Positions 10,801 through 60,287 of a DNA stretch of 64,000 nt are shown one piece after another. Positions within the stretch are counted from its first letter, which is position 1; every line of letters begins with the position of its first letter. The notes beneath the pieces were generated by a model. It was not told the DNA's origin. It was given only the letters and a program-made list of their open reading frames with translations, and made no database searches. A program made the translations under genes and the position numbers. The stretch is from Novosphingobium sp. (GTDB lineage: Bacteria > Pseudomonadota > Alphaproteobacteria > Sphingomonadales > Sphingomonadaceae). The stretch spans positions 439,249 to 503,248 of the forward strand of contig JACKKY010000004.1 of assembly GCA_024236175.1 (NCBI GenBank), written 5' to 3'.

Positions 10801-10885
10801 ACAACAGGAATGTCCGGGGCCTGACTGGCCGAGCCGATTCTGCAAAGTCGATCTTCCTCACGGAATGGCTTCTCAAGCCGGCCTT

Positions 10886-10921: not shown

Positions 10922-10961
10922 CCTCAAGTTCACCCTGATCCCATCGGCGGCGGGATCGCGA

Positions 10962-12443: not shown

Positions 12444-12525
12444 GGCATTCCCCCGGACGTCCTCAAGCGATGACGTGCTTATGCGGGAATGACCGCCGGT
12501 TCGGCAAGCAGCAGCTTGGCGATGG

Positions 12526-13881: not shown

Positions 13882-14144
13882 CGCATCCATCTCCTTGCCC
13901 GGCGCTTCGCCCTTGGGCAGGCGCCCGTTCGCCCGACGCTCGTGATCGGCGACCGGTTCGCCTGCTTGGTTAGGTCCAAGGCACCGGCGCCGCAACTCCC
14001 AACGCCCGCACGGACTGCTCCGTGCAGCAGCCGCAAATGTCCGGATCGGAAATCAGCGCAATCCGCCGGAAAGTCGCGGCTTTATTTTCGCGGTTCCGGT
14101 GGCATCATGACGGCCGCAGAAAGACAATCCGGGAGAGTGAGCCG

Positions 14145-14642
14145 ATGGAAGAAGAGATGCAGCGCCTGCTTGACGAGGCCGCGATCAAGAAAGTGCACAT
14201 CCGCTATTGCCGGGGCATAGACCGGATGGACTGGGAACTGATCCGGTCCTGCTACCACCCCGATGCGATCGACGATCACGGCGAATATGTCGGCGGCATC
14301 GACGGCTTCATCGAATACTGCAAGGCCGGCTGCCCGACGTTCCTTTCCACCACGCACATGACCGGCAACCAGCTTGTCGAAGTCGACGGCGACACGGCAT
14401 GGGCCGAGCATTATGCCCGCGCCTTCCACCGGGTCGCGGCCGACGACAGCGGCCCGCTCCGGGACCTCGTCGTCAACACCCGCTATGTCGACCGCTTCGA
14501 GCGACGGAACGGCGAGTGGCGGATCGCCCATCGCGTGGTGGTCGTCGACACTGACCGGGTGGACCCCGTCAACGAACGCTGGGTTCCCCAGGAGCAGCTG
14601 CGCAGCAGGCGCGACAGGACCGACCCGTCCTATGCAGACTAG
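14145..14642 (+). CDS. NTF2-fold / SnoaL-like (SnoaL_4 type) protein
   Basis: The segments IKKVHIRYCRGIDRMDWELIRSCYHPDAIDDHG and RYVDRFERRNGEWRIAHR are typical of this family. GGGAGAG lies 7 nt before the ATG at 14145. Confidence 0.75.
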   Translation: MEEEMQRLLDEAAIKKVHIRYCRGIDRMDWELIRSCYHPDAIDDHGEYVGGIDGFIEYCKAGCPTFLSTTHMTGNQLVEVDGDTAWAEHYARAFHRVAADDSGPLRDLVVNTRYVDRFERRNGEWRIAHRVVVVDTDRVDPVNERWVPQEQLRSRRDRTDPSYAD

Positions 14643-14657
14643 ACCGGGCCTGTAGCG

Positions 14658-45248: not shown

Positions 45249-45363
45249 GCATCAATGACCTTCGCATAGCGCATTTGGCAAGTCCCGGTAACCGCGCACG
45301 CCAATGCTGCAGCGCAGAAGGACAATGCTGCGATGCGCGAATTCCCTCTTCTCAGATACGATG

Positions 45364-45389
45364 TTTCTATATACCGTAAGATATAGAAA
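45364..45389. promoter_or_regulatory. Mo-box-type operator TTTCTATAT-N8-ATATAGAAA
   Basis: It has perfect 9-bp inverted arms and lies 17 nt upstream of the modA ATG. TATAT-type arms are characteristic of ModE-family operators. Confidence 0.6.
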
Positions 45390-45405
45390 CCGGGATTCGA
45401 GCTCT

Positions 45406-46197
45406 ATGGCCCATCCAGTCCGCACAATCGTCGCAGCCCTGGCGATGCTGCTCTTGGCCGCCTGCTCCGGCGTCGCAGAGGATGACGCGAAGACCAAGGG
45501 CCCGGTGGTTCTCGCGGCTGCCAGCCTTCAGGATGCGCTCGAAGATGCGGCTGCGACCTGGACGGCGCGGGGACACCTCCGCCCGGTGCTGTCCTTTGCC
45601 GCAACTTCGGCCCTTGCCAGGCAGATCGAAGCCGGTGCGCCGGCCGACCTGTTCATCTCAGCAGACGAAAAGTGGATGGACGGAGTCGAGAGCAAGGGGC
45701 TGCTGCGCGGCGGAAGCCGGGCCGACTTCCTTGCCAACAGCCTAGTGCTGATCGCGCCGGCCGACAGCGACACCGAACTCACGATAGCACCCGGCTTCGC
45801 ACTGGCCCAGAAGCTGGGATCAGGGCATCTCGCGGTTGCCGACCCCGATGCCGTCCCCGCCGGCCGCTATGCAAGGCAAGCGCTGACCAGGCTTGGTGCC
45901 TGGAGTCCTGTCGAGGGCAAGCTCGCGAGAGCCGAGAACGTGCGCGTTGCGCTGGCGCTGGTCGCGCGAGGCGAAGCGCCGCTCGGCATCGTCTATGCCA
46001 CCGATGCAAAAGCCGAACCAAAGGTCAGGATTGTCGGGCAATTCCCTGCTGACAGCCACTTGCCGATCACCTATCCGCTGGCGGTGCTCGGGACCTCCAA
46101 CCATGCGGACACGGACGATTTCCGTGCCTATCTCGTCTCGGAGGACGGCATGGCCATTTTCCGGAACTACGGCTTTGAGGCTCCTGGGCTGAAATGA
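45406..46197 (+). CDS. modA: Molybdate ABC transporter substrate-binding lipoprotein
   Basis: The start at MAHPVRTIVAALAMLLLAACSG contains a lipobox. It has AAASLQDAL, FSFAATSALARQIEAGAPADLFISAD and PAGRYA. Confidence 0.85.
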   Translation: MAHPVRTIVAALAMLLLAACSGVAEDDAKTKGPVVLAAASLQDALEDAAATWTARGHLRPVLSFAATSALARQIEAGAPADLFISADEKWMDGVESKGLLRGGSRADFLANSLVLIAPADSDTELTIAPGFALAQKLGSGHLAVADPDAVPAGRYARQALTRLGAWSPVEGKLARAENVRVALALVARGEAPLGIVYATDAKAEPKVRIVGQFPADSHLPITYPLAVLGTSNHADTDDFRAYLVSEDGMAIFRNYGFEAPGLK

Positions 46198-46892
46198 TCC
46201 TTTCTCCGGTGGAATGGGAAATTGTCCTGCTCTCGCTGAAAGTCAGCGGGACCGCGATGGCGGCGATCCTGCCGGTCGCTTTCGGCCTCGCCTGGATCCT
46301 CGCGCGCAAGCGTTTCGCCGGGAAGGTGGTGCTCGACGCGCTGATCCACCTGCCGCTGGTCCTGCCTCCGGTGGTGACCGGCTGGCTCCTGCTGATCCTG
46401 TTCGGCATCAACGGACCGGTGGGAAGGTTCCTGGCAGACACGGTGGGCCTGACGTTCATGTTCCGCTGGACCGGGGCCGCGCTTGCCGCCGCCATCATGG
46501 CATTGCCGCTGATGGTGCGCGCGATGCGACTCTCGATCGAGTCGGTGGACCGGCGACTGGAAGGCGCGGCGCGCACGCTGGGCGCGGGGCCGTGGCGCAC
46601 CTTTTTCGAGATAACCCTGCCGCTGGCCCTTCCCGGCGTGCTCGCCGGCATGGTGCTCGGCTTCGCCCGCTCGATCGGCGAGTTCGGAGCGACCATCACC
46701 TTCGTGTCCAACATCCCCGGCGAGACCCGTACGCTGCCGCTCGCGATCTACACGACGCTGCAACTGCCGGGCAGCGAGGCCATCGTCACCCGCCTTGCGA
46801 TCATATCCGTGATCCTGTCGCTGGGCGCACTGGTGGTCTCCGAAGTGCTGGTCCGCCGCAGCGGCCTGGGCCGGGGACGCCATGTCTTTTGA
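46194..46892 (+). CDS. modB: Molybdate ABC transporter permease
   Basis: Its ATG overlaps the modA stop (ATGA). It has the typical ModB core ARTLGAGPWRTFFEITLPLALPG and FGATITFVSNIPGETRTLPLAIY. Confidence 0.9.
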   Translation: MILSPVEWEIVLLSLKVSGTAMAAILPVAFGLAWILARKRFAGKVVLDALIHLPLVLPPVVTGWLLLILFGINGPVGRFLADTVGLTFMFRWTGAALAAAIMALPLMVRAMRLSIESVDRRLEGAARTLGAGPWRTFFEITLPLALPGVLAGMVLGFARSIGEFGATITFVSNIPGETRTLPLAIYTTLQLPGSEAIVTRLAIISVILSLGALVVSEVLVRRSGLGRGRHVF

Positions 46893-47511
46893 GATCGACA
46901 TCCTGATCCGCCGCGGCGGGCGCAAGATTTCGGGCGACTTCAAGGCGCCTGCGGGCCTCACCGCCCTCTTCGGACCTTCCGGCGCCGGCAAGACCAGCGT
47001 GCTGGACGCGATCGCCGGACTGCTCCGGCCCGAACGCGGTCGCATCGTCGTCGGCGGCACGACATTGTTCGACAGCGACAAGGGAGTCGATCTCAAGCCC
47101 GAGCGCAGGGCTTGCGGATACGTCTTCCAGGACAGCCGGCTGTTTCCCCACCGCAGCGTCACCGACAACCTGCTTTACGGCTGGCGCCTGGTGCCCGCCG
47201 AGCGGCGCTGGATCGTGCCCGAGGTGGCGATCGAGTTCCTGGGCATCGAGCATCTGCTGGACCGCATGCCGACAACCCTGTCAGGCGGAGAAGCCCAGCG
47301 CGTCGCCATCGGCCGCGCGCTGTTGAGCAGCCCGCGATTCCTGCTGATGGACGAACCGCTGTCATCGCTCGACCGCAACCGTCGCGAGGAGATCATGGGC
47401 GTGATCGAGCGCATTCGCGACGAATTGCGCCTGCCGATCCTTTACGTCAGCCACGACCGGGCCGAGGTCGAGAGGCTCGCCGACCAGATCATTCCGATCC
47501 ACACGAAATAG
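46882..47511 (+). CDS. modC: Molybdate ABC transporter ATP-binding protein, ATPase domain only
   Basis: It has Walker A GPSGAGKTS, the signature LSGGEAQRV and LLMDEP. It is 209 aa and therefore has no C-terminal TOBE-type domain. Confidence 0.85.
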   Translation: MSFEIDILIRRGGRKISGDFKAPAGLTALFGPSGAGKTSVLDAIAGLLRPERGRIVVGGTTLFDSDKGVDLKPERRACGYVFQDSRLFPHRSVTDNLLYGWRLVPAERRWIVPEVAIEFLGIEHLLDRMPTTLSGGEAQRVAIGRALLSSPRFLLMDEPLSSLDRNRREEIMGVIERIRDELRLPILYVSHDRAEVERLADQIIPIHTK

Positions 47512-47619: not shown

Positions 47620-48036
47620 TTGACGAACCGGCCGCTTCCGGTGCCAGACGAGACTTCGGCCCCCTATTGGGCCGCCTGCGCCGAACATGTCCTGAAACTG
47701 CCGCGCTGTTCGAGCTGCGGCGAATTCACGCTGCCGCCCGATGTCACCTGCCCCCATTGCCAGAGCCCCGAGCCCGACTTCACTTTCGAACCGGTCTCCG
47801 GCCGAGGCAAGGTCAGGACCTGGACGGTGATCCGCCATTCCTTCCTGTCCGGCTTCGAAGTGCCGTTCCTGCTGGTGGACGTCGAACTCGACGACCAGCC
47901 GCACATCCGCATGGTCGGGCGGCTGGTCGACGGACCGGAGACGCCCCTGCGCATCGGGGATCGCGTTGCCGTCGCCTTCGAGGACCTCTCGTCGGACATC
48001 GCGGTTCCCGCATTCACGCTGGCAGGCGCGTCATGA
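47620..48036 (+). CDS. DUF35 protein (zinc-ribbon plus OB-fold, thiolase-associated)
   Basis: It uses a TTG start with GGGAGAG 6 nt upstream. It has the four-Cys ribbon CSSCGEF...CPHC followed by an OB-fold-like segment GRGKVRTWTVI. Confidence 0.8.
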   Translation: MTNRPLPVPDETSAPYWAACAEHVLKLPRCSSCGEFTLPPDVTCPHCQSPEPDFTFEPVSGRGKVRTWTVIRHSFLSGFEVPFLLVDVELDDQPHIRMVGRLVDGPETPLRIGDRVAVAFEDLSSDIAVPAFTLAGAS

Positions 48037-49232
48037 GCGGGTTGTTCGCGGCCCATAACCGCATCGCCGTCGTCGGCTACGCCCACAGCGACGTTGTCAG
48101 GCGCACCGCCGAGCCGCTCGGCATCACCGCGCTGCGCACCGCGCGGGCGGCTATCGAGGATGCCGGCCTGACGCCTGAACAGATCGACGGCTTCACCTCG
48201 TCCTCCCTGCTGCCCTCGTCCGGCGAGCACGAAGCGCAGGACGGCATCAGCGTCGTGACGTCCGACTGGCTGGCCAAGCATCTGGGCGGACATGCCCACT
48301 ACGTCGCCGGCTTCCAGGGCATCGGCCAGCTTACCGGATCGCTGTCGCTGGCGATCAGCACTCTGGCCAGCGGCGCGGCCGACTACGTGCTGCTCCACCG
48401 CGCGCTGCACAACCCGGCCGGCAAGTACAACGACAATCCGATGACCGAGTTCGCGGGCGACCAGCAATGGAGTGCGCCCCAGGGCTTCTTCGGCGCCCTG
48501 CCCGCCATCGCGATGGTCTGCAACGAGTACTGCCAGCGTTACGGCGCGGACCGCGAATCCCTGGCCGATCTGGTGGTCGAAGCGCGCAAGAACGGGGCCC
48601 GTCTGCCGTGGTCCTACTGGCACGACAAACCTCTCACGCGCGAGGCCTATCTCGCCGAGCCGCCGATCAACGACCCGATGTCGCGACTCGACTGCGACAT
48701 CCCGGTCCAGGGCGTCGGCGTGTTCATCCTGACGACGGCGGAGCGCGCCAGGGACCTGCCGAACAAGCCGGTCTATATCTCGGGACAGGGCTTCGGCTAC
48801 CCGCTTCACCACCGCATCCCGCTTCACTGGACGCTCGACGAGATGATGGAAGCGGGTGAAGGCCTCGCGCGGCGATTGTGGGAAAGCTCGGGCCTCGGGC
48901 CGGGCGATATCGACACCGCACAGGTCTACGACGCCTTCTCACCCTTCGTGTATATCTGGCTGGAAGTGCTGGGTTTCTGTCCGGTCGGCGAAGCCCATCG
49001 CTTCGTCAGGGACGGCGGGATCGACAGCGACATACCCGAATCGCTCGGCGCATTGTCTGGCGGTGGCGCGATCGGAAACGGACGGCTCCACGGGCTTCCG
49101 CAGCTGCTCGAATGCTACCTTCAGCTTTCCGGACGGGCGGGAGAACGGCAGCGCCCGACCACCAATGCGGTGATGAGCTATTCGGCGCCGCATTTCGGCG
49201 GGGCGGTGGTCCTCACCAACGATCCGGTCTGA
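48033..49232 (+). CDS. Thiolase-fold protein of the SCP2/Ltp type without a nucleophile cysteine
   Basis: Its ATG overlaps the DUF35 stop (ATGA). It has a thiolase-like layout (IAVVGYA..., LASGAADYVLL, LSGGGAIGNGRLHG). The segment where CxS is expected reads GIGQLTGSLS. Confidence 0.8.
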   Translation: MSGLFAAHNRIAVVGYAHSDVVRRTAEPLGITALRTARAAIEDAGLTPEQIDGFTSSSLLPSSGEHEAQDGISVVTSDWLAKHLGGHAHYVAGFQGIGQLTGSLSLAISTLASGAADYVLLHRALHNPAGKYNDNPMTEFAGDQQWSAPQGFFGALPAIAMVCNEYCQRYGADRESLADLVVEARKNGARLPWSYWHDKPLTREAYLAEPPINDPMSRLDCDIPVQGVGVFILTTAERARDLPNKPVYISGQGFGYPLHHRIPLHWTLDEMMEAGEGLARRLWESSGLGPGDIDTAQVYDAFSPFVYIWLEVLGFCPVGEAHRFVRDGGIDSDIPESLGALSGGGAIGNGRLHGLPQLLECYLQLSGRAGERQRPTTNAVMSYSAPHFGGAVVLTNDPV

Positions 49233-49461
49233 CGCCTGATACGCCCGACAGTCGCATCGGCTTCAATCCAAAAGCCGAATTTTCGTTCTTGATATCGAAT
49301 TGATGTTGTGACCTACTGCGGCTTCGAGTGGACGGACCGGGCGTCGCCGCACGCAATGGGGCAAGCCACGCTATCCTGAAGACAGGAAGCCGGACCTGCG
49401 CCACTCCGACCCCAGGACGGGCATGAAGCGATGCCCGAATGCGAAGCGAGGAGAGACATTG

Positions 49462-50661
49462 ATGTCAGTCGCAGAACTCGAAAGAAATGATGCCGGGGCC
49501 GCCGGCAAGAGCCGCTACCGCATCGTCGACGCGGACCAGCATGTCGATCCGCCGCACACGTTCTGGAAGGATTATCTGCCCGAACACCTGCGCGAGTTTG
49601 CGCCGGAGATCGAGGAAGGCGACGAGCACGACTGGGTCGTATTCGAAGGCAGGAAGCGCCCGCTGAACCTCCTCTCGTTCCTCGCCGGCAAGGAAGAAAT
49701 CAACTTCAAGCAGAAGGGCAAGCTGGCCGACCTGCGCAGCGCAATGTCCGCGCAAAAACGCCTCAAGGATATGGACGACGACCAGATCGACTGCGCCGTG
49801 CTGTTCGGCGGTGGTCCGCTCCCGACGGCGAACAGCGAGCTGCTGATCGAAAGCTATCGCGCCTACAATCGCTGGCTGGCCGATTTCTGCGCGGAAGCGC
49901 CGGACCGGTTCAGGGGCGTTGCCTACCTGCCGATGCGCGATGTCGAGGAATCGGTCGGATTTCTGCGGGAGATCGCCAAGCTGGGCTTCCGCTCGATCAA
50001 CATTCCCGCCTACCCGCAGGCAGCCGACGGGGTGAAGACCTCCGCCGGCATCAAGAACATGAGCAGTTCGCAGGTATCCGCGTTGACCGGCGATCCCAGC
50101 AGCGAGCGCGCCTTCTGGCACAAGGAATTCGAACCGTTCTGGGCCGAAGTCTGCGACCTCGACATCACCTGCACCATGCATCTGGGAGGACGGATCACCC
50201 GCTTCGGCGAGAACGATCATTTCCTGCCCGATCATCTCATGTCCAAGCTGGCGATGGCCGAACCGGTCTGCGTCGCGATCTATGGCGGGCTGTTCGAGCG
50301 TTTCCCGAAACTGCGCTGGGCGATGATCGAAAGCGGCGTGGGCTGGATGGCGTTTGCCGCGCAATACATGGATCACAGCTGGGGCAAGCACCGGCACTGG
50401 GTCGGCAACAAGAACCCGCATCCGCCGAGCTACTACATGGACCAGAACATCTGGGGATCGTTTCTGCGCGACCGGATCGGCATCGAGATGCGCGACCGCC
50501 CCGGCGGCAAGAACATCATGTGGTCCTCGGACTTCCCGCATTCGGAAACGACCTATCCGCATTCGCGCGAATACATCGAGCAGGAATTCGAGGGCATTCC
50601 CGACGCGGACAAGCGCGAGATCGTCGGCGGTATCGCCGGCAGGCTGTTCCAGTTCGACTGA
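49462..50661 (+). CDS. Amidohydrolase_2 family protein
   Basis: It has IVDADQHVDPPHTFW, YNRWLADFC, IESGVGWM and SDFPHSE. GGAGAG lies upstream of the ATG at 49462. Confidence 0.8.
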   Translation: MSVAELERNDAGAAGKSRYRIVDADQHVDPPHTFWKDYLPEHLREFAPEIEEGDEHDWVVFEGRKRPLNLLSFLAGKEEINFKQKGKLADLRSAMSAQKRLKDMDDDQIDCAVLFGGGPLPTANSELLIESYRAYNRWLADFCAEAPDRFRGVAYLPMRDVEESVGFLREIAKLGFRSINIPAYPQAADGVKTSAGIKNMSSSQVSALTGDPSSERAFWHKEFEPFWAEVCDLDITCTMHLGGRITRFGENDHFLPDHLMSKLAMAEPVCVAIYGGLFERFPKLRWAMIESGVGWMAFAAQYMDHSWGKHRHWVGNKNPHPPSYYMDQNIWGSFLRDRIGIEMRDRPGGKNIMWSSDFPHSETTYPHSREYIEQEFEGIPDADKREIVGGIAGRLFQFD

Positions 50662-50736
50662 CCGATCTGCCGGGGCCGGCCTCGCCGGTCCCGGCCCGAA
50701 AATGACAGCGGCGACCACAGCCGCGAAGGAGAGACG

Positions 50737-51999
50737 ATGACCGCCCTGGCAGAAGGTGCGCCCGCCGGCGCAACCGCCACCGAGACCATGCCATGGCTGA
50801 TCTCGGTGGACGATCACGTTACCGAACCGCCCGACCTGTGGACGTCTCGCCTGCCGTCGAAATTGCGCGAGCGCGGCCCGCAGGTGAAGCGCGACCGTAT
50901 CCTTGCCGGGGCCGATGCACGCGAAGGCAACACGCAATATGGGCATCCCGACGGCAAGATCGCCGATTTTTGGGTGTTCGACGGCAAGCCGACGCGTGGC
51001 TTCCTCACCGCCATCACCCATGCGGTGGGCTTCGACGAGAAGAAGATCGGCAACACACCGCTGACCTACGACGAGATCCATCCGGGGGCATGGAAGCAGG
51101 CCGACCGCCTCGCCGACATGACCAGCAACCACGTCGAGGCGTCGCTTTGCTTCTGCAATGCCGTCTCCGGCTATGCCGGACAGCTGTTCTTCCAGCACCC
51201 GGACAAGGAATTGGCCCTCGCCTGCGTTCAGGCCTACAACGACTGGATGATCGACGACTGGTGTTCGGGCGACGGCTACGGACGCCTGATCCCGCTGATT
51301 TTCCTGCCGCTCTGGGATCCGGTGCTTTCGGCAAAGGAAGTGCGCCGCTGCGCGGCAAAGAGCGCGATTGCCGCCTCCTTCCTAGAGAACCCGCACGAGT
51401 ACGATCTGCCTACGGTCTACAGCCGCGACTGGGACCCGCTGTTCCAGGCGTGCGACGAAACCCGGACCAACCTCAGCATGCACATCGGCTCCTCGCCGCG
51501 GATTCCCACGACGTCGAAAGACGCGCCCTACATGATGACGTCGATCATCATGTTCATCGATTCGATGACCTCGGCGCTGGACTTCCTGCTGGCCGGAATT
51601 TTCGAGCGCTTCCCCAACATGAAGATCGCCTATTCCGAAGGCCAGATCGGCTGGCTGCCTTACGCCGTGCGACGCGCCGACAAGGTGTGGCTTGCCAAGG
51701 ACAAGGAAGGGCACGGCTACGAGCGCACACCCAATCCGCCGAGCAGCTATGTCGAGGGGCACGTCTACGGCTGCATTTTCGACGACGACACCGCACTGAT
51801 CTGCCGCGACCTGATCGGCATGGGCCAGATCATGATGGAAGTGGACTACCCCCATTCGGCCTGCTCCTTCCCCAATGTCGTGGAAGTGGCGACCGGCCTG
51901 GCCGACACGGCAGGCCTGAACGCCGAAGAGAGGCACATGTTCTTCCGCGGCAACGCGATAGACGCCTATGGGCTGGAGCGGCTCGGCATCACGAAATGA
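50737..51999 (+). CDS. Amidohydrolase_2 family protein
   Basis: It has ISVDDHVTEPPDLW, YNDWMIDDWC, YSEGQIGWLPY and VDYPHSA. It is a paralogue of 7923-9263. AAGGAGAG lies upstream. Confidence 0.8.
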   Translation: MTALAEGAPAGATATETMPWLISVDDHVTEPPDLWTSRLPSKLRERGPQVKRDRILAGADAREGNTQYGHPDGKIADFWVFDGKPTRGFLTAITHAVGFDEKKIGNTPLTYDEIHPGAWKQADRLADMTSNHVEASLCFCNAVSGYAGQLFFQHPDKELALACVQAYNDWMIDDWCSGDGYGRLIPLIFLPLWDPVLSAKEVRRCAAKSAIAASFLENPHEYDLPTVYSRDWDPLFQACDETRTNLSMHIGSSPRIPTTSKDAPYMMTSIIMFIDSMTSALDFLLAGIFERFPNMKIAYSEGQIGWLPYAVRRADKVWLAKDKEGHGYERTPNPPSSYVEGHVYGCIFDDDTALICRDLIGMGQIMMEVDYPHSACSFPNVVEVATGLADTAGLNAEERHMFFRGNAIDAYGLERLGITK

Positions 52000-52046
52000 A
52001 CAATCCGCGCCTGCGCGGCGACGGCAATCGATAGCGGGGCAAGGGG

Positions 52047-53669
52047 ATGATCGAGGAAGCGGATTTCGTGATCGCGGGAGGCGGCAGCGCCGGCTGCGTT
52101 ATGGCCAACCGGCTTTCCGAAGACAGCGGCAATCGCGTCGTGCTGCTCGAGGCCGGGCAGCCGACCGACAAGCTGCTGATCAATGTCCCCGCCGGCATGC
52201 AGTCGGTCGTCGCCAGCCAGGACACCAACTGGTTCTATACGACAGAGCCGGATTCGAGTGCGAATGGCCGCCGGATATTCCTGTTCTCCGGCAAGGGCCT
52301 CGGCGGCGGATCGTCTATCAACGGCATGGTCTACATCAGGGGCACGCGGTACGACTACGACCAGTGGGCGGCGGCAGGCTGCACCGGCTGGAGCTGGGAC
52401 GAGGTGCTGCCCTTCTTCAAGCGGTCCGAGGATTTCGACGGACCGGATTCGGAATGGCACGGAAAGGGCGGCCCGCTCGGCGTCTCGCAACTGAGGACGA
52501 TCCATCCGCTCGCCTACAGCTTCATGGACGCCTGCCGGGATCTCGGTATGCGGCAGATCGACGACTACTGCTCCGGCGACATCGACGGCACTTTCGTCAA
52601 CTTCGCCACACAGCGCGGCGGCAACCGCTGCAGCACCGCAGAAGGGTTCCTCAAGCCCGCGCTGAAGCGGCCCAATCTGGAGGTTATCACCGGTGCGACG
52701 GTCGACCGGATCCTGTTCGAAGGCACGAGGGCGCGAGGCGTGCGCTTCATCCACGATGGCGCTGTGCGCGAGATCCGGGTGGCGCGTGAGGTCATTGTCA
52801 GCGCCGGGACGATGCAGTCTCCCGGAATACTGATGCGCTCGGGAGTAGGCCCCGGTGCGCATCTTCGCGAACACGGCATCGATGTCATCGCCGGCCGCGA
52901 AGGCGTAGGTAAGAACCTGCACGAGCACCCGAGCCTGCCCAACAGCCGGCAGGTCGACATGGCGACCTACAATGTAAGGAACAATCCGTTCCGTCTGGCG
53001 GCGGAGGGAATGAAATACCTGCTCGCCCGGCGCGGCTGGCTGACCACCTGCGCGGTGCATGCCATGGCCCATGTGCGTTCCTCGCCGGGCCTCGAATATC
53101 CCGATATCAAATACCAGATGCTGCCGTTCTGGAATCACCAGAACGTGCAGGCCTATTTCGGCGCGGACACGCCCGTCCCGGATTCGACCCGCACCTGCGG
53201 CATCACCATCGGCGTGAACCTGATGACGCCCAACAGCCGCGGGCAGATTCTCCTGCGCGACACCAATCCGGCTTCGCGCCCGTTGATCGACTTCCGCCTC
53301 TATGACGACCCTTCGGATCTCGAGCGGATGCGCAAGGGCCTGCAGATCGCCAACGACATCTTCGCCGCGCCGTCTCTGGCAAAACATGTGAGCGGCACGG
53401 CCTACCCGCCGGATCCAAACCAGAGCGACGAGGACTGGGACGACCAGCTCCGAAGCTGCAGCGCGACCGGCCTGCATCCGGTCGGAACCTGCCGGATGGG
53501 CGGCGACGAGGACTCCGTCGTCGATCCCCAGCTCCGCGTGCGCGGCGTCGACGGCCTCAGGGTGGCAGACTGCTCGATCATTCCGGTGCTGCCTTCCGCC
53601 AATACCAACGCACCCGCGATCATGATCGGCGAGCGCTGCGCGGACTTTATCCGGGGAAACCGCCGCTGA
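52047..53669 (+). CDS. GMC-family FAD oxidoreductase (choline-dehydrogenase-like)
   Basis: It has the ADP-binding motif DFVIAGGGSAGCVMANRLSE, GGSSINGMVYIRG, and a C-terminal HPVGTCRMG and PSANTNAP. Confidence 0.9.
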   Translation: MIEEADFVIAGGGSAGCVMANRLSEDSGNRVVLLEAGQPTDKLLINVPAGMQSVVASQDTNWFYTTEPDSSANGRRIFLFSGKGLGGGSSINGMVYIRGTRYDYDQWAAAGCTGWSWDEVLPFFKRSEDFDGPDSEWHGKGGPLGVSQLRTIHPLAYSFMDACRDLGMRQIDDYCSGDIDGTFVNFATQRGGNRCSTAEGFLKPALKRPNLEVITGATVDRILFEGTRARGVRFIHDGAVREIRVAREVIVSAGTMQSPGILMRSGVGPGAHLREHGIDVIAGREGVGKNLHEHPSLPNSRQVDMATYNVRNNPFRLAAEGMKYLLARRGWLTTCAVHAMAHVRSSPGLEYPDIKYQMLPFWNHQNVQAYFGADTPVPDSTRTCGITIGVNLMTPNSRGQILLRDTNPASRPLIDFRLYDDPSDLERMRKGLQIANDIFAAPSLAKHVSGTAYPPDPNQSDEDWDDQLRSCSATGLHPVGTCRMGGDEDSVVDPQLRVRGVDGLRVADCSIIPVLPSANTNAPAIMIGERCADFIRGNRR

Positions 53670-54529
53670 TGGCGCGGACCGGCGAATTCGTCACCAGGGA
53701 CGGTTGCCGCCTCAACTACCGGCTGCGCGGAAACGGCCCGCTGATCGCGCTGACGCCGGGCGGGCGCGAAGCCGGCGAGGCAGTCGCTTCGCTGGCCGAC
53801 GCGCTGGCGCAAGGAGCCACCGTGCTCACATGGGACCGGCGCAATGCCGGGGCCAGCGACCTGTTCTTCGGCGGCGAGCTTTCCGAAGCGGAGCTCTGGG
53901 CCGAAGACCTGGCCGACCTGATCGAGCACCTTGGAAAGGGTCCCGCATGGCTGGCAGGCGGCTCCGCAGGGTGCCGCACTTCGGTGATCTCGGCCCTGCG
54001 GCGACCCGAAACGGCGCGCGGCCTGATCCTGTGGTCGGCTTCCGGCGGCGAATATGCCTGCCAGTTCCTCGGCTTCAGCTATCACGTGCCCTACATCATG
54101 GCGGCGCAGCGCGCGGGCATGGCGGCGGTTGCCGAAACGCCTTTCTTCGCCGACAGGATCGCCGCCAACCCCGCCAATCGAGAACGCCTGCTGTCGCTTG
54201 ATCAGGACGAGTTCGTGGCGGTGATGCGGCGGTGGAACCGCGCCTTTTATTACGACCCCGCCGAGACGCTGACCGGCGCAGCCGACGAAGCGCTCAAGAC
54301 CATCGCCGTGCCGACACTGATCTTCGAGGGGAATGACGACGTCCACGCGCCCGAAGTCGCCCGGCGCATGGCCGAACTGATCCCGGGCAACACCTTCCTC
54401 CCCTCCCCGTGGTCCAACGAGGACTGGCTGGACAAGTTCACCGGAAGGAAAACCGGCTCCGTCTTCGAGCTCTACCCGCTGCTGGCACCTGCCATCCTCG
54501 ATTTCGTGAAGCGCAGCGAGGCGGCCTGA
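53669..54529 (+). CDS. Alpha/beta hydrolase
   Basis: Its ATG shares one nucleotide with the GMC stop (TGATG). It has the nucleophile elbow GGSAGC and a hydrolase-like length. Confidence 0.7.
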   Translation: MARTGEFVTRDGCRLNYRLRGNGPLIALTPGGREAGEAVASLADALAQGATVLTWDRRNAGASDLFFGGELSEAELWAEDLADLIEHLGKGPAWLAGGSAGCRTSVISALRRPETARGLILWSASGGEYACQFLGFSYHVPYIMAAQRAGMAAVAETPFFADRIAANPANRERLLSLDQDEFVAVMRRWNRAFYYDPAETLTGAADEALKTIAVPTLIFEGNDDVHAPEVARRMAELIPGNTFLPSPWSNEDWLDKFTGRKTGSVFELYPLLAPAILDFVKRSEAA

Positions 54530-54633
54530 CCGGGCCCACCATCCGAAAGCGGCTTGACTTCCTCAGCCTGGTCGAGACCTTGCAAGGAACTCGACCGGCC
54601 AATGCAGACCTGTCGAGCGGGAGGAGGCCACCG

Positions 54634-55581
54634 ATGTCGGCAAATAGCAAACGCTTTGACCTGCCGCTGCCGTTCGGCTGGTTTGCAGTCGCGCGCTCCG
54701 ATGAACTCGCTGCGGGCGATATCCGGCCGCTGGAATACTGCGAGAGCGAGTTTGTGCTCTGGCGGGGAGAAGACGGAACCGCTCGCGCTCTGGATGCCTA
54801 CTGCCCTCATCTGGGCGCCCATCTCGGCTACGAAAGCGCCGTTGTCGGCAACGACCTGCGCTGCCCCTTCCATCACTGGCATTTCGCCGGTGACGGCACG
54901 GTCACGGACATTCCCTATGCCAAGGTGATCCCGCCCAAGCTCAAGCGCCCCTGCGACAGGGCATGGCCGGTCTACGAGGACATGGGCATGATCTTTGTGT
55001 GGTGGCATCCGCACAAGGCGGCCCCGCTATGGGAACTGACGCCCGTGACCGAGATCGCGGACGAGAAATGGGAAGCCACCGAATACAAGGAATGGATCGT
55101 CGACATCCCGATCCAGGAGTTGACCGAAAACGGGGCGGACATCGCCCATTTCGCTCCGCTGCACGGCACCAAGTCGCCGCCGGTCCCGGAATTCAAGGCG
55201 GACGGCTACACGCGATACAGCTCGGTCTCGACCAAGATGCCGACCCCGAAAGGCATCGTCGACGGCAAGATCACCGTCCGCGCGCCTGGCCCGGGCGTTT
55301 CGTTCACGCGCTTTCACGGCATCACCGAAATGCTGCTGATGCAGATGCACACGCCGATCGATTCCGGCCACACGCTGCTTCGGCACCAGTATTACATCCC
55401 TTCAGCGCTTGAGGAGAGCAAGGTCAACGTCACCAAGGCACTGGTCCGGGAAACTTCCCGCCAGATCGAGCAGGACATCGCGATCTGGAAGCACAAGAAG
55501 TACCTGAAAGAACCCACGCTGGTGAACGGCGACGGCCCGATCCTCGCCTATCGCGAGTTCTTCAGCCGCTACTATGCGTAG
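54634..55581 (+). CDS. Rieske non-heme iron oxygenase, KshA-like (oxygenase component only)
   Basis: GGGAGGAGG lies upstream of the ATG at 54634. It has the Rieske motif CPHLGAHL...CPFHHWHF, the iron motif ENGADIAHFAPLH and the C-terminal EQDIAIWKHKKY...DGPILAYREFFSRYY. Confidence 0.8.
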   Translation: MSANSKRFDLPLPFGWFAVARSDELAAGDIRPLEYCESEFVLWRGEDGTARALDAYCPHLGAHLGYESAVVGNDLRCPFHHWHFAGDGTVTDIPYAKVIPPKLKRPCDRAWPVYEDMGMIFVWWHPHKAAPLWELTPVTEIADEKWEATEYKEWIVDIPIQELTENGADIAHFAPLHGTKSPPVPEFKADGYTRYSSVSTKMPTPKGIVDGKITVRAPGPGVSFTRFHGITEMLLMQMHTPIDSGHTLLRHQYYIPSALEESKVNVTKALVRETSRQIEQDIAIWKHKKYLKEPTLVNGDGPILAYREFFSRYYA

Positions 55582-55599
55582 GCGCCCCGGACCGCAGCC

Positions 55600-56514
55600 A
55601 TGAAGTTCACCCTCGAGTTTCCCGTCAACGTCGTCGATCCCCCGGGGGAATTCCAGTCGATGCCCGCGATCCGCGAGATGGCCGAAGCGCTGGAGCAGGC
55701 GGGCATCGATGCCTGCTATGTCACCGATCACCCGGCGCCGGATTCAAACTGGCTTAAGGCTGCGTTCGGCCACGATGCGCTGGATCCCTTCGCCGGGCTT
55801 GCCTTCGTTGCCGCGGCAAGCAGCAAGCTGTTGCTCCACACCAACATCGTCGTGCTGCCATATCGCAATCCCTTCGTGACCGCGAAAGCCGCCGCGACCG
55901 TCCACGTGCTTTCGGGCGGGCGGCTGATACTCGGCGTCGGCATCGGCTACCAGAAAGTGGAATTCGAAGCGCTCGGCAGCGACTTTCATCGCCGGGGCAA
56001 GCTCACCGACGAGGCACTTGCGGCAATTCGTGCGGCCTGGACTGGAGGCGGGGTCGAGATAAGCGGATCGGGCTTCAGGGCCCAGGGCGTCGAGCCCCGC
56101 CCCGCCCCGAACCCGCCCCCACCGATCTGGATCGGTGGGGGCAGCGAAAAGGCGCTGGACCGGGCGGCGCAATGGGGCGATGGCTGGTGCCCGTTCTACG
56201 CCGCGCCGGGCATGAACAAGATCAACCAGGATGCCGGTATTCAGTCGATCGAACATCTGCGCGAGCAGATCGCCCGGCTGCAGGAGAAGCGCGCGGCGCT
56301 GGGGAAGACCGCTCCGTTCGACATCGCGCTGGGCCCGCGGATGCGCATCAAGCGGGCCGACGCAGCGAGCGCGCAACGCTTCCTTGACGAAATCGGGCCG
56401 CTGCAGGAAGCCGGCGTCAGCTGGGCGACTGTTGAAATGATCCATCCCAGCCGCGCCGAGTATATCGAACTGGTGCATTGGTTCGGCGAAGAAGTGGTCG
56501 CGAAGACGCGATAG
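55600..56514 (+). CDS. Luciferase-like monooxygenase (LLM) class flavin/deazaflavin-dependent oxidoreductase
   Basis: It has a TIM-barrel LLM pattern: DACYVTDHP, LLLHTNIVVLPYRNP, GGRLILGVGIGY and PPIWIGGGSEKALDRAAQWGDGW. Confidence 0.8.
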   Translation: MKFTLEFPVNVVDPPGEFQSMPAIREMAEALEQAGIDACYVTDHPAPDSNWLKAAFGHDALDPFAGLAFVAAASSKLLLHTNIVVLPYRNPFVTAKAAATVHVLSGGRLILGVGIGYQKVEFEALGSDFHRRGKLTDEALAAIRAAWTGGGVEISGSGFRAQGVEPRPAPNPPPPIWIGGGSEKALDRAAQWGDGWCPFYAAPGMNKINQDAGIQSIEHLREQIARLQEKRAALGKTAPFDIALGPRMRIKRADAASAQRFLDEIGPLQEAGVSWATVEMIHPSRAEYIELVHWFGEEVVAKTR

Positions 56515-56563
56515 TGGTGCGGCGTCCGCCCTTTTCATCCGGGTGGCGCAGGAGGGAGAGAGC

Positions 56564-57367
56564 ATGACCGAACGCCGAGTGGCGCTGTTGCAGAGGGCGG
56601 GGTCGTTCGCCAATCCGTGCCTGGCGCGTCGTCTCGCAAGGGCGGGGCACGATCTTGTGCTTCATGCACCGCGAGAGGGGATGGTGGAGGAACTTCTCGA
56701 TCTTGGCGCTGGTGTCGAAGTGGTCGGCGAAGATGCGGTGCCGCTGGACGGCCCGGAATCCGACACCACGCCGGAAGGCGCGCGGGCGCTCGTCGAACGC
56801 GCGCTGGCGCGATTCGGCAGGCTCGATGCGGCCGCCCTGCTCCCGCCGCGCGGGAAGGAGAGCGAAGTCGGCTCGATCCGGGGCCGGCTGTTGGACGCGC
56901 CGGTCGAGCATATCAACGCGATGGGAAACTATCTTGAAGTCACCTGCCATATCCTGCGCGCCGTGATCCCGGCGATGCAGGAACGCGGCGGGCAGATTCT
57001 CGTGTTCACCAGCGATTCCGGCGCGCGGCCGGAAGCCGGCTGGTCGCTCTACGGCGCGGCGCGGGCCGGTCAGAATTTCCTGATCCGCGCCGTCGCGCTC
57101 GAACATGCGGCTGACGGGATCTGCATCAACGCGATGGGTTCCAAGAACGCGATCTCGGCGGGTTTCCCCTACTGCCCGCCCGGGCACGCCACCGACGAGG
57201 CGGTGATACTCGGCGAATGGTCTAAGCCGCTGGTCGCCGAGACGCCGTTGGGCAGACTTGGGACAATGGAGGAACTCGCGGCTTTCGCCTGCGTGCTGCT
57301 CGACGGCAGCAACCGCTTCCAGACCGCCCAGTATTTCTCCTTTTCCGGCGGCTGGAGCGAGCTCTAG
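56564..57367 (+). CDS. SDR-fold protein with degenerate cofactor and catalytic motifs
   Basis: GGAGGGAGAG lies upstream of the ATG at 56564. The Rossmann glycine motif position reads LLQRAGSFANP, and the YxxxK position reads YGAAR. The C-terminal PLGRLGTMEELA is SDR-typical. Confidence 0.65.
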   Translation: MTERRVALLQRAGSFANPCLARRLARAGHDLVLHAPREGMVEELLDLGAGVEVVGEDAVPLDGPESDTTPEGARALVERALARFGRLDAAALLPPRGKESEVGSIRGRLLDAPVEHINAMGNYLEVTCHILRAVIPAMQERGGQILVFTSDSGARPEAGWSLYGAARAGQNFLIRAVALEHAADGICINAMGSKNAISAGFPYCPPGHATDEAVILGEWSKPLVAETPLGRLGTMEELAAFACVLLDGSNRFQTAQYFSFSGGWSEL

Positions 57368-57409: not shown

Positions 57410-58981
57410 TCACCCGCCATCGGCGAACATCGCCTCCACATCCACCTTGCGGATCTTGCCCGACGGCGTGAGCGGGAAGCTTTCGACGAAAAGCCAGCGG
57501 CGCGGCACCTTGAAATGCGCGATGCGGCTCGCCGCGTGATTTTCCAGTTCCCCGGCACCGGGCGAAAACCCCTCGCGAAGCTGGACCGCCGCGCCGACCA
57601 CCTGGCCCCAGCGCTCGTCGGCTATCGGTACCACGGCAGCGCCTTGAACGGCGGGATGCTCGAGCAGGCAGTCCTCGACCTCGGCCGGATAGATGTTCTC
57701 GCCGCCGCGAATGATGACTTCGCGGGCTCTGCCGCTGATGCGCAGATAGCCGTTCTCGTCTATCGAACCGAGATCGCCGGTATGCAGGAAGCCTTCGGCA
57801 TCGATCGTCTGGGCAGTGGCTTCGGGCATCCGGTAATAGCCTTCCATGACGACGGGCCCGCGCACGCAGACCTCTCCGGTCTCGCCCACAGCCAAAGTCT
57901 CGCCGTCCTGCAGTCCGCAAATCCTGACTTCGACGTGAGGCGCCGGCCGGCCGACGGTTTCGGAAATCGCCTGCGCACTGTCGTTCGGCATCGTCGCGCT
58001 GATGAGCGGACATTCCGACTGGGCGTAGGTTACGATCACCGGCGCGGCGAATTCGCGCATCAGCCGTTCGATCAGGGGCCGCGGCACCTGCGCACCGCCC
58101 GAGCCGATCGATCGCACCGCGAAGCTGCCGGGCCGCCACTCCGGCTGCTCGGCCAGCGACAGGATCATCGTCGGCACGCCGCCGATCCGCGTCGCACCGC
58201 ATTCGCGCATCATCCGCAGGTATTCGCCGGGGTCGAAGCGATGCATCACCACATAGCAGGCGCCCGTGGTCATCGCGCCAAGAACCATGCTGATCGCGCC
58301 GCCCATGTGATTGAGCGGGATGGGATTGAGCCAGACGTCGCTTTCGTCCCCGCCGGCGAGCTGCGTGCGGAGCCAGCCGCCGTTGAGCGCGGCGCGATGC
58401 GACAGCGCGGCGCCTTTCGCCCTGCCGGTGGTGCCGGACGTGAACTGGATCAGGAACAGGTCGGTGGGCCGGACGGGAGGCGAAGGAACGGGGCTGCACT
58501 GGCTTGCGAGCTTGCGCAGGTTGGCCAGGGGATAGGTCCGTTCCTGTCCGACAATCGCCCTCGCGCGCTCCATCAGAGACACACCGCGGGTATCCCGGTC
58601 CGCCAGCAGCAGGGCCGGCGCGGTGAGGTCCAGCGCATGGCGACATTCATGGTCGGTCCATGCCGGATTCCATGAAGCGACGACCATGCCGGCTTTCGCG
58701 CAGCCATATTCCAGGAGGACCCAGTCGACCGAATTGCGCGACCAGATGCCGACGCGATCGCCGGGCGCGGCGCGCTCGAGCAGCCAGGCGGCAACCCGAT
58801 CGGCTTCATCGAGCAATTGGCGGTAGGACATCGTCTCGATGCCGCCCTCGCCCGACCAGACCAGCGCAGGACGGTCGGCAAAGCGCTCCGCCATCTGCCG
58901 CAGCGTGTCGCCGACAGTGCCATCGATGAGATCGATCGAAGTATCGGGCGGGATGTGCGCCGCACCACGCTCGTTGCTCAT
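57410..58981 (-). CDS. AMP-forming acyl-CoA synthetase/ligase (ANL superfamily)
   Basis: It has the AMP-binding motif IQFTSGTTGRAKGA, GYYRMPEAT, TGDLGSIDENGYL and PSGKIRK. GGAGG lies upstream of the ATG at 58981. Confidence 0.9.
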   Translation of the reverse strand: MSNERGAAHIPPDTSIDLIDGTVGDTLRQMAERFADRPALVWSGEGGIETMSYRQLLDEADRVAAWLLERAAPGDRVGIWSRNSVDWVLLEYGCAKAGMVVASWNPAWTDHECRHALDLTAPALLLADRDTRGVSLMERARAIVGQERTYPLANLRKLASQCSPVPSPPVRPTDLFLIQFTSGTTGRAKGAALSHRAALNGGWLRTQLAGGDESDVWLNPIPLNHMGGAISMVLGAMTTGACYVVMHRFDPGEYLRMMRECGATRIGGVPTMILSLAEQPEWRPGSFAVRSIGSGGAQVPRPLIERLMREFAAPVIVTYAQSECPLISATMPNDSAQAISETVGRPAPHVEVRICGLQDGETLAVGETGEVCVRGPVVMEGYYRMPEATAQTIDAEGFLHTGDLGSIDENGYLRISGRAREVIIRGGENIYPAEVEDCLLEHPAVQGAAVVPIADERWGQVVGAAVQLREGFSPGAGELENHAASRIAHFKVPRRWLFVESFPLTPSGKIRKVDVEAMFADGG

Positions 58982-59051
58982 CCAGCGTTCCTCCCCGGAC
59001 ACGACTGCACGCCGGCATCCTGTTGCGAATGGCGAACGGGCCTTGTCAGCG

Positions 59052-60170
59052 TCACTCGCCAGCCGGCAGATCGACCTTCGCTATGCAATGGCTCCGCACC
59101 GACCCCAGCCACAGCGCATCCTCCGTCCTGAGGCCGATCGTGGCAACGCCGAAATGCCTGGTTCCGGTACCGTCGAAAATCTCCGTGACTTCGTAGGTTA
59201 CCGGGTCGATCTCGGCCGACTTGTAGTCGAGCGCGCAAGCGGGATTGTTGGTCATCACGCAGACGGAGACCGCTTCTTCGCTCGCGGTATGGCCCGTCGC
59301 CACGAGCTTGCCGTTGAACCCGTAGCGGATGTTGTCGGGATGGAAACCGAGCCTGATTTCGTGTGCCTTGCCCAGACCGGGGTCGAGAGGCATGTGCGTC
59401 ACACTCGCGCCGGGCCAGGAATTGACATAGGCCCACTTTCCGTCGGCAGACAGTTCGATGCCGTTGTTCCCCAGCAATGCGCTGTTCGGCACCTTCTTCC
59501 AGCCAGCCCCGGGCGACCAGGTGAAGACCGCACCATATTTCATCGCTTCCCGCACCTGTTCCATATCCCCGGAAGCTTCCGGCATGCCGTTTGCGGCGAT
59601 GTCGGCGAAATTGGGAACCGCGAAGTCGCCGGCATAGGATGCCGACATGACGACGCTCCCGTCCGGCCGGGCGGCCACGGAGTTGGGCATCGATTTCCCG
59701 GGACTGATGATGCAACCGATCCAGCCGACCTGCGGCCCACCGTCGTCCATGGCGATCTCGAACACCTCGATCGATTCGCGGCCGCCGTGGTTGACCACGT
59801 AGAGGTTGTAGGTGCCGTCCGGATTGGATTTCAGGCCGAGGCCGTGAGCCGAGAACTGAACCGGATCGGCGGGCCCGGGACATGCATCGTAGGGGGCTCG
59901 CGCCTCCACCCCGTCGGCCACGTCCAGGACCAGTTTCCGCCCGGTCGCGGTCTCGCGGTGAAACAGGTAGAGGCCGCCTTTCTGGAAGAAGGCGTCGCCG
60001 ATACCCGAGCCGACGATCCATGGGCTGTCCGGCAGGGCCACCATGTCTTCCACGTTCTCGAAGCCGCAAATCAGCCTGTCCGGTTCAGCGGCGGCAACGA
60101 TCTGCGCAGTGCAAAGAGCGGCAGCGCTGGCGACCCAGCCGAGCCTCGCGGCGGTGTTCATTGGCTTCAT
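59052..60170 (-). CDS. Secreted six-bladed beta-propeller, arylesterase/paraoxonase (PON)-like
   Basis: The signal MKPMNTAARLGWVASAAALCTAQIVAAAE is preceded by GGAGGGAG. YNLYVVNHGGRESIEVFEI resembles the PON signature (VVNHPD..VEVF). Confidence 0.6.
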   Translation of the reverse strand: MKPMNTAARLGWVASAAALCTAQIVAAAEPDRLICGFENVEDMVALPDSPWIVGSGIGDAFFQKGGLYLFHRETATGRKLVLDVADGVEARAPYDACPGPADPVQFSAHGLGLKSNPDGTYNLYVVNHGGRESIEVFEIAMDDGGPQVGWIGCIISPGKSMPNSVAARPDGSVVMSASYAGDFAVPNFADIAANGMPEASGDMEQVREAMKYGAVFTWSPGAGWKKVPNSALLGNNGIELSADGKWAYVNSWPGASVTHMPLDPGLGKAHEIRLGFHPDNIRYGFNGKLVATGHTASEEAVSVCVMTNNPACALDYKSAEIDPVTYEVTEIFDGTGTRHFGVATIGLRTEDALWLGSVRSHCIAKVDLPAGE

Positions 60171-60287
60171 GACTGCTCCCTCCAGGCGATCTCTCTCGGT
60201 CCCGGCTTTATCCCGGTTCGCCTTTCCACATAGACCGCGGCTCGGTCGGCTCCAACCCTTCGCCCCCGCCAAGTCGTGCCGGGCGGC

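Follow-up and report, generated by a model that had tools for sequence, protein, structure and literature searches.

The thiolase-fold proteins Ltp2 and Sal cleave beta-hydroxyacyl-CoAs, and in the steroid pathway the hydroxyl group is installed by an acyl-CoA dehydrogenase (ACAD) together with a hydratase. The ibuprofen ipf cluster carries a two-subunit ring-hydroxylating dioxygenase. How bacteria get past the quaternary and ring carbons that block beta-oxidation, which are found in resin, naphthenic and terpenoid acids and in some drugs, is poorly understood. A further group of enzymes, the amidohydrolase-related dinuclear oxygenases (AROs), includes DitZ, PtmU3, AibH2 and SfbO; the paper describing them gives as their marks an N-terminal D-x-H and a C-terminal D-x-P-H-x-D/E motif, both reportedly lacking in those hydrolases and decarboxylases of the fold that have been characterised, and has DitZ hydroxylating diterpenoid resin acids (PMC13154177). 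In a second paper, PtmU3 appears as a beta-hydroxylase that accepts CoA-ligated diterpenoids, and AibH1 as the zinc-containing, mononuclear and non-catalytic alpha-prime subunit of the AibH1H2 hydroxylase (PMC7782822). Among halohydrin dehalogenases, the HheG type is the one that acts on cyclic epoxides, cyclohexene oxide and limonene oxide among them (PMC6434027). Here we describe a ten-gene block from Novosphingobium sp. in which relatives of Ltp2, of the AROs and of HheG lie together. It is carried by a 64,000-nucleotide stretch (the window; G000:C4:439249-503248 of a 4.17-Mb, seven-contig genome; 65% G+C) whose closest relatives all belong to Novosphingobium. ARO hydroxylases, Ltp2-type aldolases and HheG-type lyases are each of a known kind, and what is new is their combination. 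Our tentative reading, to which we would give somewhat less than an even chance, is that the block is a consolidated island of at least three conserved modules which degrades, in CoA-thioester form, a bulky and hindered alicyclic acid resembling a terpenoid or a steroid.

Gene families were assigned from Pfam and NCBIfam profile matches on translations of open reading frames (ORFs), and solved relatives were sought with phmmer against PDB chains. By ten-gene block we mean nine plus-strand genes and a minus-strand CoA ligase gene that converges on them. The features are as follows, in window coordinates.

47620..48036, plus strand: DUF35 protein, OB_ChsH2_C and zf-ChsH2 (Pfam PF01796, PF12172)
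48033..49232, plus strand: Cys-less thiolase-fold protein, Ltp2-related (Thiolase_C_1)
49257..49288, plus strand: terminator-like hairpin with a T-rich tail (consensus scan and sequence; a pattern match only)
49462..50661, plus strand: Amh1, PtmU3-type ARO (PF04909, Amidohydro_2)
50737..51999, plus strand: Amh2, ARO-fold protein nearest to DitZ (Amidohydro_2)
52047..53669, plus strand: GMC flavoprotein, alcohol oxidase or dehydrogenase (PF00732, PF05199)
53669..54529, plus strand: alpha/beta-fold protein, alpha/beta hydrolase (Pfam)
54634..55581, plus strand: KshA-like Rieske monooxygenase (PF00355, PF19298; Rieske and KshA_C)
55600..56514, plus strand: LLM-class oxidoreductase, Bac_luciferase (TIGR03619, above cut-off)
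56564..57367, plus strand: HheG-type halohydrin-dehalogenase homologue of SDR fold (PDB matches)
57410..59002, minus strand: acyl-CoA ligase, AMP-binding, converging on the block (PF00501, PF13193)

All ten genes are present as ORFs and fall into the Pfam families that an earlier note on this DNA had named, and the intergenic distances it gave (-4, 229, 75, 47, -1, 104, 18 and 49 nt) were reproduced with supported starts. Thus the Amh1 start at 49462 is preceded by a GGAGAG ribosome-binding site, the Rieske start at 54634 (an assignment taken over from the earlier note) coincides with the beginning of the orthologue matches, and the HheG-like start at 56564 is preceded by GGAGGGAGAGAG and agrees with the start in L003, a Novosphingobium metagenome-assembled genome discussed below. 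We also confirm that no reductase, acyl-CoA dehydrogenase, hydratase or regulator gene is found between 47.6 and 59 kb.

Our interpretation departs from the earlier note in the tandem 'amidohydrolase_2' genes, whose products are most likely not hydrolases but members of the ARO group of oxygenases. No NCBIfam model matches Amh1 or Amh2. Their nearest solved relatives are DitZ and PtmU3, although these are distant (phmmer E values of 1e-25 to 1e-43): Amh1 matches PtmU3 (6omp) at 1.3e-27 and DitZ (8uyr) at 6.8e-26, with decarboxylases of the same fold at 1e-7 or weaker, and Amh2 matches DitZ at 2.8e-43 and PtmU3 at 3.4e-25, with the decarboxylases at 1e-9 or weaker. As an ARO we counted a PF04909 TIM barrel with at least ~200 residues ahead of the C-terminal motif. 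In Amh1 the Pfam match covers residues 36-411 of the long ORF and the motif starts at residue 357; both ARO motifs are present, and the ligands are D25-Q-H27, H240, E290 and D357-F-P-H360-S-E362. The ligand columns, those of D25/H27, H240 and E290 included, are invariant across 45 sequences (alignment A1), and the C-terminal motif ends in glutamate, as in PtmU3, in 120 of the 120 homologues listed. Amh1 thus resembles PtmU3 in its fold, its D-x-H and its D-x-P-H-x-E, and the nearby CoA ligase fits a CoA-bound substrate. The block differs from the PtmU3 setting in appearing catabolic, not biosynthetic, and in having no small Rieske ferredoxin or reductase gene adjoining the Amh genes.

Amh2 retains its D-D-H, His249, Glu301, Asp370 and His373, and its C-terminal motif reads DYPHSA, so that the final acidic ligand of D-x-P-H-x-D/E is replaced by alanine; for this reason we do not file it as a canonical dinuclear ARO. 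The alanine holds in 41 homologue clusters, among them every one listed from 87% down to 56% identity, and most of the listed relatives at 51-55% identity have DYPHAD, the two identifiable ones being from Acidimicrobiales. The same ligand pattern is described for AibH1 (PMC7782822). Judged by ligands, Amh1 with its full set would correspond to AibH2 and Amh2 to AibH1, and it is an attractive idea, by analogy, that the two may form a heteromer of the AibH1H2 kind. A complex prediction for Amh1 with Amh2 (alignments A1 and A2) returned no answer (score 0.00) and weighs neither way on binding. A plasmid search with Amh2 gave as its top match a Rhodococcus sp. WAY2 plasmid (45% identity), where the neighbourhood is uninformative.

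Further AROs lie close by. The minus-strand gene at 7923-9263 of the window encodes one of DitZ type (DDH and DYPHSD; 39% identity to Amh2), and its neighbours (9427-15809) encode SnoaL_4 and DUF4403 proteins, a porin of Alginate_exp type and the alpha subunit of a ring-hydroxylating oxygenase (12526-13995); this region may be another oxidative module. A second ARO and GMC pair is found at C4:505403-508042, ~2 kb beyond the end of the window, with 25% and 30% identity to Amh1 and to the GMC protein respectively, and a Fer2-type ORF lies near it at C4:504912-505073.

The DUF35 gene overlaps the thiolase-fold gene by 4 nt, and its product, an OB fold with a C4 zinc ribbon (CSSC...CPHC), is the presumed partner of the thiolase-fold protein. 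The latter lacks the nucleophilic cysteine, as had been proposed: its nucleophile loop contains no cysteine, the cysteines being at 163, 167, 221, 316 and 361. The top PDB match is the steroid retro-aldolase Ltp2 of Thermomonospora curvata (TcLtp2; 6ok1, E 1.6e-35), and the YDAF of our protein aligns with Y294DHF of Ltp2, so that the catalytic-base tyrosine is kept. CtSal has YDCY, uses a cysteine (Sal Cys304) as the acid and has glutamine at the 344 position (residue roles from PMC12329534). In our protein the arginine of GRLHG occupies the Ltp2 Tyr344 position (Gln352 in Sal) and alanine stands at the position of His in Ltp2 and Cys in Sal; given this difference at the catalytic acid, we treat it as a distinct clade and not as Ltp2 or Sal. 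The combination of YD[A/G]F and GR[LMF]HG recurs in all Novosphingobium orthologues checked, in three paralogues from the same genome and in most ARO-linked metagenome homologues, which marks a conserved third active-site variant and not decay. The chemistry is probably of the retro-aldol type. Like Ltp2 with ChsH2 and Sal with Shy, then, the pair combines a thiolase fold lacking the cysteine, the YDxF tyrosine and a zinc-ribbon (C4) DUF35 partner encoded by an overlapping gene; unlike in ChsH2, the DUF35 protein stands alone and is not the C-terminus of a MaoC hydratase, and the block has no hydratase. The pair is kept in L003 and L010-L014. The Novosphingobium genome holds four or five such pairs in total, and one would be expected in a random 20-kb stretch ~2% of the time, which is a rough estimate and not a formal test.

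From the gene families, motifs and modular synteny, which are observed, we infer every chemical step and the substrate class in the following scheme. The convergent ligase would form an acyl-CoA, and Amh1 would then hydroxylate an unactivated C-H bond, most plausibly beta to the thioester. This hydroxylation would stand in for the acyl-CoA dehydrogenase and hydratase, whose reactions would be unworkable beside a quaternary or ring carbon. The thiolase-fold protein with its DUF35 partner would split the resulting beta-hydroxyacyl-CoA by a retro-aldol reaction, while Amh2, with its AibH1-like ligands, might be an auxiliary subunit or else another enzyme whose metal site differs. The GMC protein would oxidise an alcohol made by one of the oxygenases, the KshA-like Rieske enzyme could add another hydroxyl, the F420-type LLM enzyme could interconvert alcohol and ketone, and the HheG-like lyase and the alpha/beta-fold protein might process epoxide, ester or lactone intermediates. 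If the Amh proteins are AROs, then plausibly no dehydrogenase or hydratase is needed; with both absent and an ARO in place, the simplest reading is that the acid is activated with CoA, hydroxylated directly at a C-H bond and then cleaved by a retro-aldol reaction. Such a route would suit substrates in which the alpha or beta carbon is quaternary or part of a ring. The description of the genes as a CoA-linked, oxygen-dependent set is supported, and we keep an alicyclic or polycyclic carboxylate as a reasonable guess at the substrate.

The last plus-strand gene had been called a degenerate SDR, and here too a different assignment is called for. The protein is a homologue of the HheG-type halohydrin dehalogenases by its PDB matches (halohydrin dehalogenase 7wkq, 1.4e-45; HheG 5o30 and 6i9u-w, ~1e-43; AbHheG, 1e-40), by its triad and by its nearest Atlas cluster, which is named 'halohydrin dehalogenase'; the first chains labelled solely as SDR or oxidoreductase match at 1e-12 or weaker. 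It shares with HheG of Ilumatobacter coccineus and with AbHheG an SDR fold, full-length similarity (1e-43 to 1e-45) and the Ser-x12-Tyr-x3-Arg triad (region TSDSGARPEAGWSLYGAAR), and the Gly-rich nucleotide loop is gone, the N-terminus reading LLQRAGSFANP. Motif 1 of the halohydrin dehalogenases is T-x4-F/Y-x-G (PMC11976700). The block protein has Q-x4-F-x-N, in which the aromatic residue is kept and the threonine and glycine are replaced, the glycine being the least mutable motif position in engineering work. We therefore call it an HheG-family homologue and not a proven dehalogenase, and its neighbours in the block imply no halogenated substrate. We know of no established natural substrates for G-type halohydrin dehalogenases.

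The LLM protein scores 226.5 bits against the F420-type model TIGR03619 (cut-off 166.9), and its top PDB matches are F420-dependent alcohol dehydrogenases. Genuine use of F420 is plausible, since a fused cofG/cofH (fbiC-like; an 803-aa open frame), cofD and cofE, all above their cut-offs, adjoin one another at C2:620641-624648 of the genome. Judging from these genes, the Novosphingobium host can probably make F420, which would largely explain an F420-type enzyme in a proteobacterium. An actinobacterial source for the DNA, to which such an LLM enzyme had pointed, was considered and rejected, given that the close relatives are all Novosphingobium and that a gene for a TonB-dependent receptor is near. 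About 15 LLM paralogues are encoded in the same genome. To our knowledge, an F420-making sphingomonad would be unusual.

Among the remaining enzymes, the GMC protein is closest in the PDB to a chloramphenicol-oxidising GMC enzyme of a sphingomonad (8b7s, 5.6e-109), and its gene adjoins Amh2 in L003, L013 and L017. The alpha/beta-fold protein has GGSAG and a conserved D-x-x-H and lies far from characterised enzymes, with PDB matches only at ~1e-8 or weaker. Four paralogues are encoded in the genome (C1:307991, C2:601744, C3:23619 and C3:120318), and the family shares LTPGGR, WDRxNxGxSD, GGSAG and D-x-x-H but lacks a histidine at the late position where one is usual. The Rieske protein has the Rieske motif (CPH...CPFH), the mononuclear iron motif (DIAHFAPLH) and the KshA_C domain; it matches KshA (4qdc) at 2.7e-29 and is distant from the solved KshAs. 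The ligase has an orthologue in the same convergent position in L003 and in L004, and one 2.4 kb from the Rieske-LLM pair in L007. A further orthologue, G236:C5:213903-215450, contains one in-frame TGA.

A KshB-type reductase is indeed missing from the block, as the earlier note said, but its absence is normal in sphingomonads, and the KshA homologues of Sphingobium Chol11 have no dedicated KshB (bioRxiv 10.1101/2021.06.24.449856). Genes for Fer2 and small Rieske proteins occur in the genome outside the block, one of the small Rieske ORFs lying 2.7 kb ahead of the window, and the electron donors are presumably encoded there too. The whole genome encodes 40 Rieske-domain, 31 acyl-CoA-ligase-like, 18 ARO-like and 15 Fer2 genes, and just two KshA_C genes. 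Its oxidative catabolic repertoire is very large and its dedicated electron-transfer genes few.

These features can be put together in a bolder form, which we regard as speculative and unlikely as a whole. In that form the cassette of DUF35, YD(G/A)F thiolase-fold protein and PtmU3-type ARO would be a widespread and so far undescribed O2-dependent bypass of blocked beta-oxidation, in which the beta C-H of a hindered acyl-CoA is hydroxylated directly and the product is split by a new Tyr + Arg variant of the Ltp2/Sal aldolases; Amh1 and Amh2 would form an AibH1H2-like heteromer; and an HheG-type enzyme acting on a cyclic epoxide, beside a proteobacterial F420-dependent LLM enzyme, would here have its first natural catabolic context.

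Several observations weigh against the scheme of CoA activation, hydroxylation and retro-aldol cleavage. Both known catalytic acids are missing from the thiolase-fold protein, which makes retro-aldol chemistry an extrapolation. The work on DitZ used the free acid and not a CoA ester (PMC13154177). No ferredoxin or reductase gene is found within the block, and the terminator-like hairpin sets the DUF35/thiolase-fold pair apart from Amh1. Metagenome loci of 6 kb or longer with a gene for an Amh1 relative numbered 44; a P450 is found beside it in 21 of them, as against nine with the DUF35/thiolase-fold pair, and so Amh1 relatives may be general hydroxylases rather than beta-hydroxylases. Finally, the whole block is found in just one near relative, and in G223 the orthologues are spread over four or five contigs.

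The last of these points bears on an alternative which we consider doubtful but serious, namely that the block is a mosaic in which two to four independent catabolic modules for different substrates have been juxtaposed. The parts may be the two AROs with GMC, possibly together with DUF35 and the thiolase-fold protein; the Rieske, LLM and ligase genes; and perhaps the HheG-like and alpha/beta-fold genes on their own. Sphingomonads typically have their pathway genes dispersed and rearranged in this way. DUF35/thiolase-fold, Amh1, Amh2, GMC and HheG-like genes occur in G223 and G312, where no Rieske-LLM pair is close by; reciprocally, G292, G236 and L004 have the Rieske-LLM pair and/or the ligase and none of the other block genes, the DUF35-to-GMC set and the HheG-like gene included. 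In G312 (L013), DUF35, the thiolase-fold gene, another ARO, an inverted Amh1, Amh2 and GMC follow one another. In G223 (L017; G223:C3:723000-743000), Amh2, GMC, an MFS transporter and Amh1 lie among three P450s, a TauD-family dioxygenase and SnoaL_4, an enzyme mix that resembles terpenoid tailoring, with the orthologues of the DUF35/thiolase-fold pair, the HheG-like gene, the ligase and the alpha/beta-fold gene on other contigs. The G223 Amh2 orthologue (L017:9719-10913) matches in two pieces, residues 20-275 and 280-418, and the short break between them may reflect a frameshift or faulty assembly.

Within the block itself, a mosaic would be in keeping with the terminator-like site 3' of the thiolase-fold gene. 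The hairpin itself, 49257-49278, begins 25 nt past the stop codon and is followed by an AT-rich spacer within the 229-nt gap (49233-49461); on this pattern, hairpin and spacer may mark a boundary between transcription units, and the spacer could be an internal promoter or operator region. The large numbers of Rieske (40), ligase-like (31) and ARO-like (18) genes in the genome likewise mean that neighbours from these families are common, and in L003 an additional PtmU3-type ARO (L003:12025-13272; DCH and DYPHNE) stands between the LLM and HheG-like genes, where the window has 49 nt. This is a clean one-gene insertion or deletion. The third Amidohydro_2 protein of L007 and the G233 ARO beside an HheG-like gene were considered as orthologues of the extra ARO and set aside, the similarity being not significant or only 24% identity.

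Against a mosaic, eight of the nine genes are tightly packed on one strand, with gaps of -4 to 104 nt after Amh1, and the full arrangement is kept at ~90% protein identity (84-97%) in L003, including the upstream P450, the ABC genes and the convergent ligase, although no homologues of the window's downstream genes or of its other minus-strand neighbours were found there. The DUF35, thiolase-fold and ARO cassette, moreover, recurs well beyond the genus. As for linkage within the modules, Amh1, Amh2 and GMC stay together in four genomes and three arrangements, and DUF35, the thiolase-fold gene and an Amh1-type ARO recur at C1:588942-591830 of the same genome and in G228 (L016). Of the nine metagenome loci that combine an Amh1 relative with the DUF35/thiolase-fold pair, most have the pair directly upstream on the same strand; among all 44, a CoA ligase is present in ten and a GMC gene in three. 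The Rieske-LLM pair occurs in L005-L007, with a 4-nt overlap in L005 and, by match coordinates, in L007, and a distant gammaproteobacterial locus (L008) has TetR followed by a Rieske gene (36% identity), a CoA ligase, a thiolase-fold gene and DUF35. Three modules can thus be distinguished: DUF35, thiolase-fold gene and ARO; ARO, ARO and GMC; and Rieske and LLM with a CoA ligase. Conservation of the block as a unit therefore holds in part: whole-block synteny in one near relative is more than chance, but the modules are separate, and sometimes on different contigs, in other Novosphingobium. The block is a lineage-specific consolidation and not one conserved operon, and because its modules are split elsewhere, the earlier idea of nine genes in one pathway is not demonstrated.

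A variant of the pathway for steroid or bile-salt side chains, of the kind put forward for Sphingobium sp. Chol11, in which KshA-like hydroxylation of the side chain or of C17 is followed by C-C cleavage, seems to us improbable. In its favour, the block encodes a KshA-like oxygenase together with an Ltp2-like protein and its DUF35 partner, and an enoyl-CoA hydratase gene and a FAD_binding_2 gene (KstD-like fold) lie near the Rieske-LLM pair in L007. The Chol11 side-chain cluster (SclA, Scd4AB, Nov2c228 and amidases) is likewise that of a sphingomonad, with a CoA ligase and no cognate KshB known, and Nov2c228 is a divergent KshA homologue that hydroxylates steroids at a position other than 9-alpha. 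The 'amidases' are presumably of a family other than Amidohydro_2. However, the block has no acyl-CoA dehydrogenase gene, which is essential in Chol11, and the Chol11 cluster was reported to lack aldolase and thiolase homologues. The genome has just two KshA_C genes, and, as weak evidence, no FadD3 or CasG equivalog, taken as markers of a canonical steroid pathway, scores above its cut-off.

We likewise give little credence to a resin-acid pathway for abietane diterpenoids related to dit. DitZ is the top solved relative of Amh2 (2.8e-43), the dit cluster has an essential sterol-carrier-like (SCP-x thiolase-like) protein, DitF, as well as P450s (PMC13063091; PMC10710418), and the window has a P450 gene 2.4 kb ahead of the block and, at 12526-13995, a gene for a ring-hydroxylating alpha subunit. 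Yet the last ARO ligand, present in DitZ, is gone in Amh2, and the block has no DitA1-type dioxygenase, which the dit cluster needs, and no extradiol dioxygenase or other dit signature gene, DitZ being the only dit protein compared. A role as metal-dependent hydrolases or decarboxylases, in the manner of LigI, LigW or ACMSD, we consider very improbable for the Amidohydro_2 pair, despite the PF04909 match, weak PDB matches (1e-7 to 1e-9) to ACMSD and to gamma-resorcylate and 5-carboxyvanillate decarboxylases, and the conceivable non-oxygenase role of Amh2, which is one ligand short, for the ARO matches are stronger by 16 to 34 orders of magnitude and Amh1 has both of the ARO-specific motifs reported absent from characterised enzymes of those kinds.

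Returning to the reading as an island for hindered acyl-CoAs, the CoA-dependent modules of ipfABDEF and BbsAB type run on a similar plan: a CoA ligase, an oxygenase that works on the CoA ester or close to it, and loss of an acyl unit through an SCP-x-like thiolase-fold protein and DUF35. The match of the thiolase-fold protein to BbsB is distant (3.8e-16), and where ipf has a two-subunit ring-hydroxylating dioxygenase, the block has oxygenases of ARO and KshA types. It thus remains the case that no characterised cluster matches gene for gene, those of Chol11, dit and ipf being set apart by their descriptions, and a literature search turned up no work that connects amidohydrolase-fold oxygenases with DUF35 and CoA ligases. 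If an ARO and an aldolase-like partner do carry acids past carbons that block beta-oxidation, thousands of genes annotated as 'amidohydrolase' or 'lipid-transfer protein' would gain a function, and the three-gene cassette would be a marker for such chemistry. HheG-type enzymes are valued in biocatalysis, and the block places one in a natural pathway context. It also offers a sphingomonad in which F420 biosynthesis genes accompany F420-type enzymes.

Beyond the ligase, the minus-strand gene at 59052-60272 of the window, between the ligase and an MFS transporter, encodes a 406-aa protein with no Pfam match, and no homologue was found beside the ligase in L003. On the other side of the block, the ABC genes at 45304-47511 (SBP_bac_11, permease and ATPase) were considered as an importer for the pathway and rejected, as they look like a molybdate-type transporter. 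The P450 gene lies on this upstream side as well, and a TonB-dependent receptor is encoded near the block.

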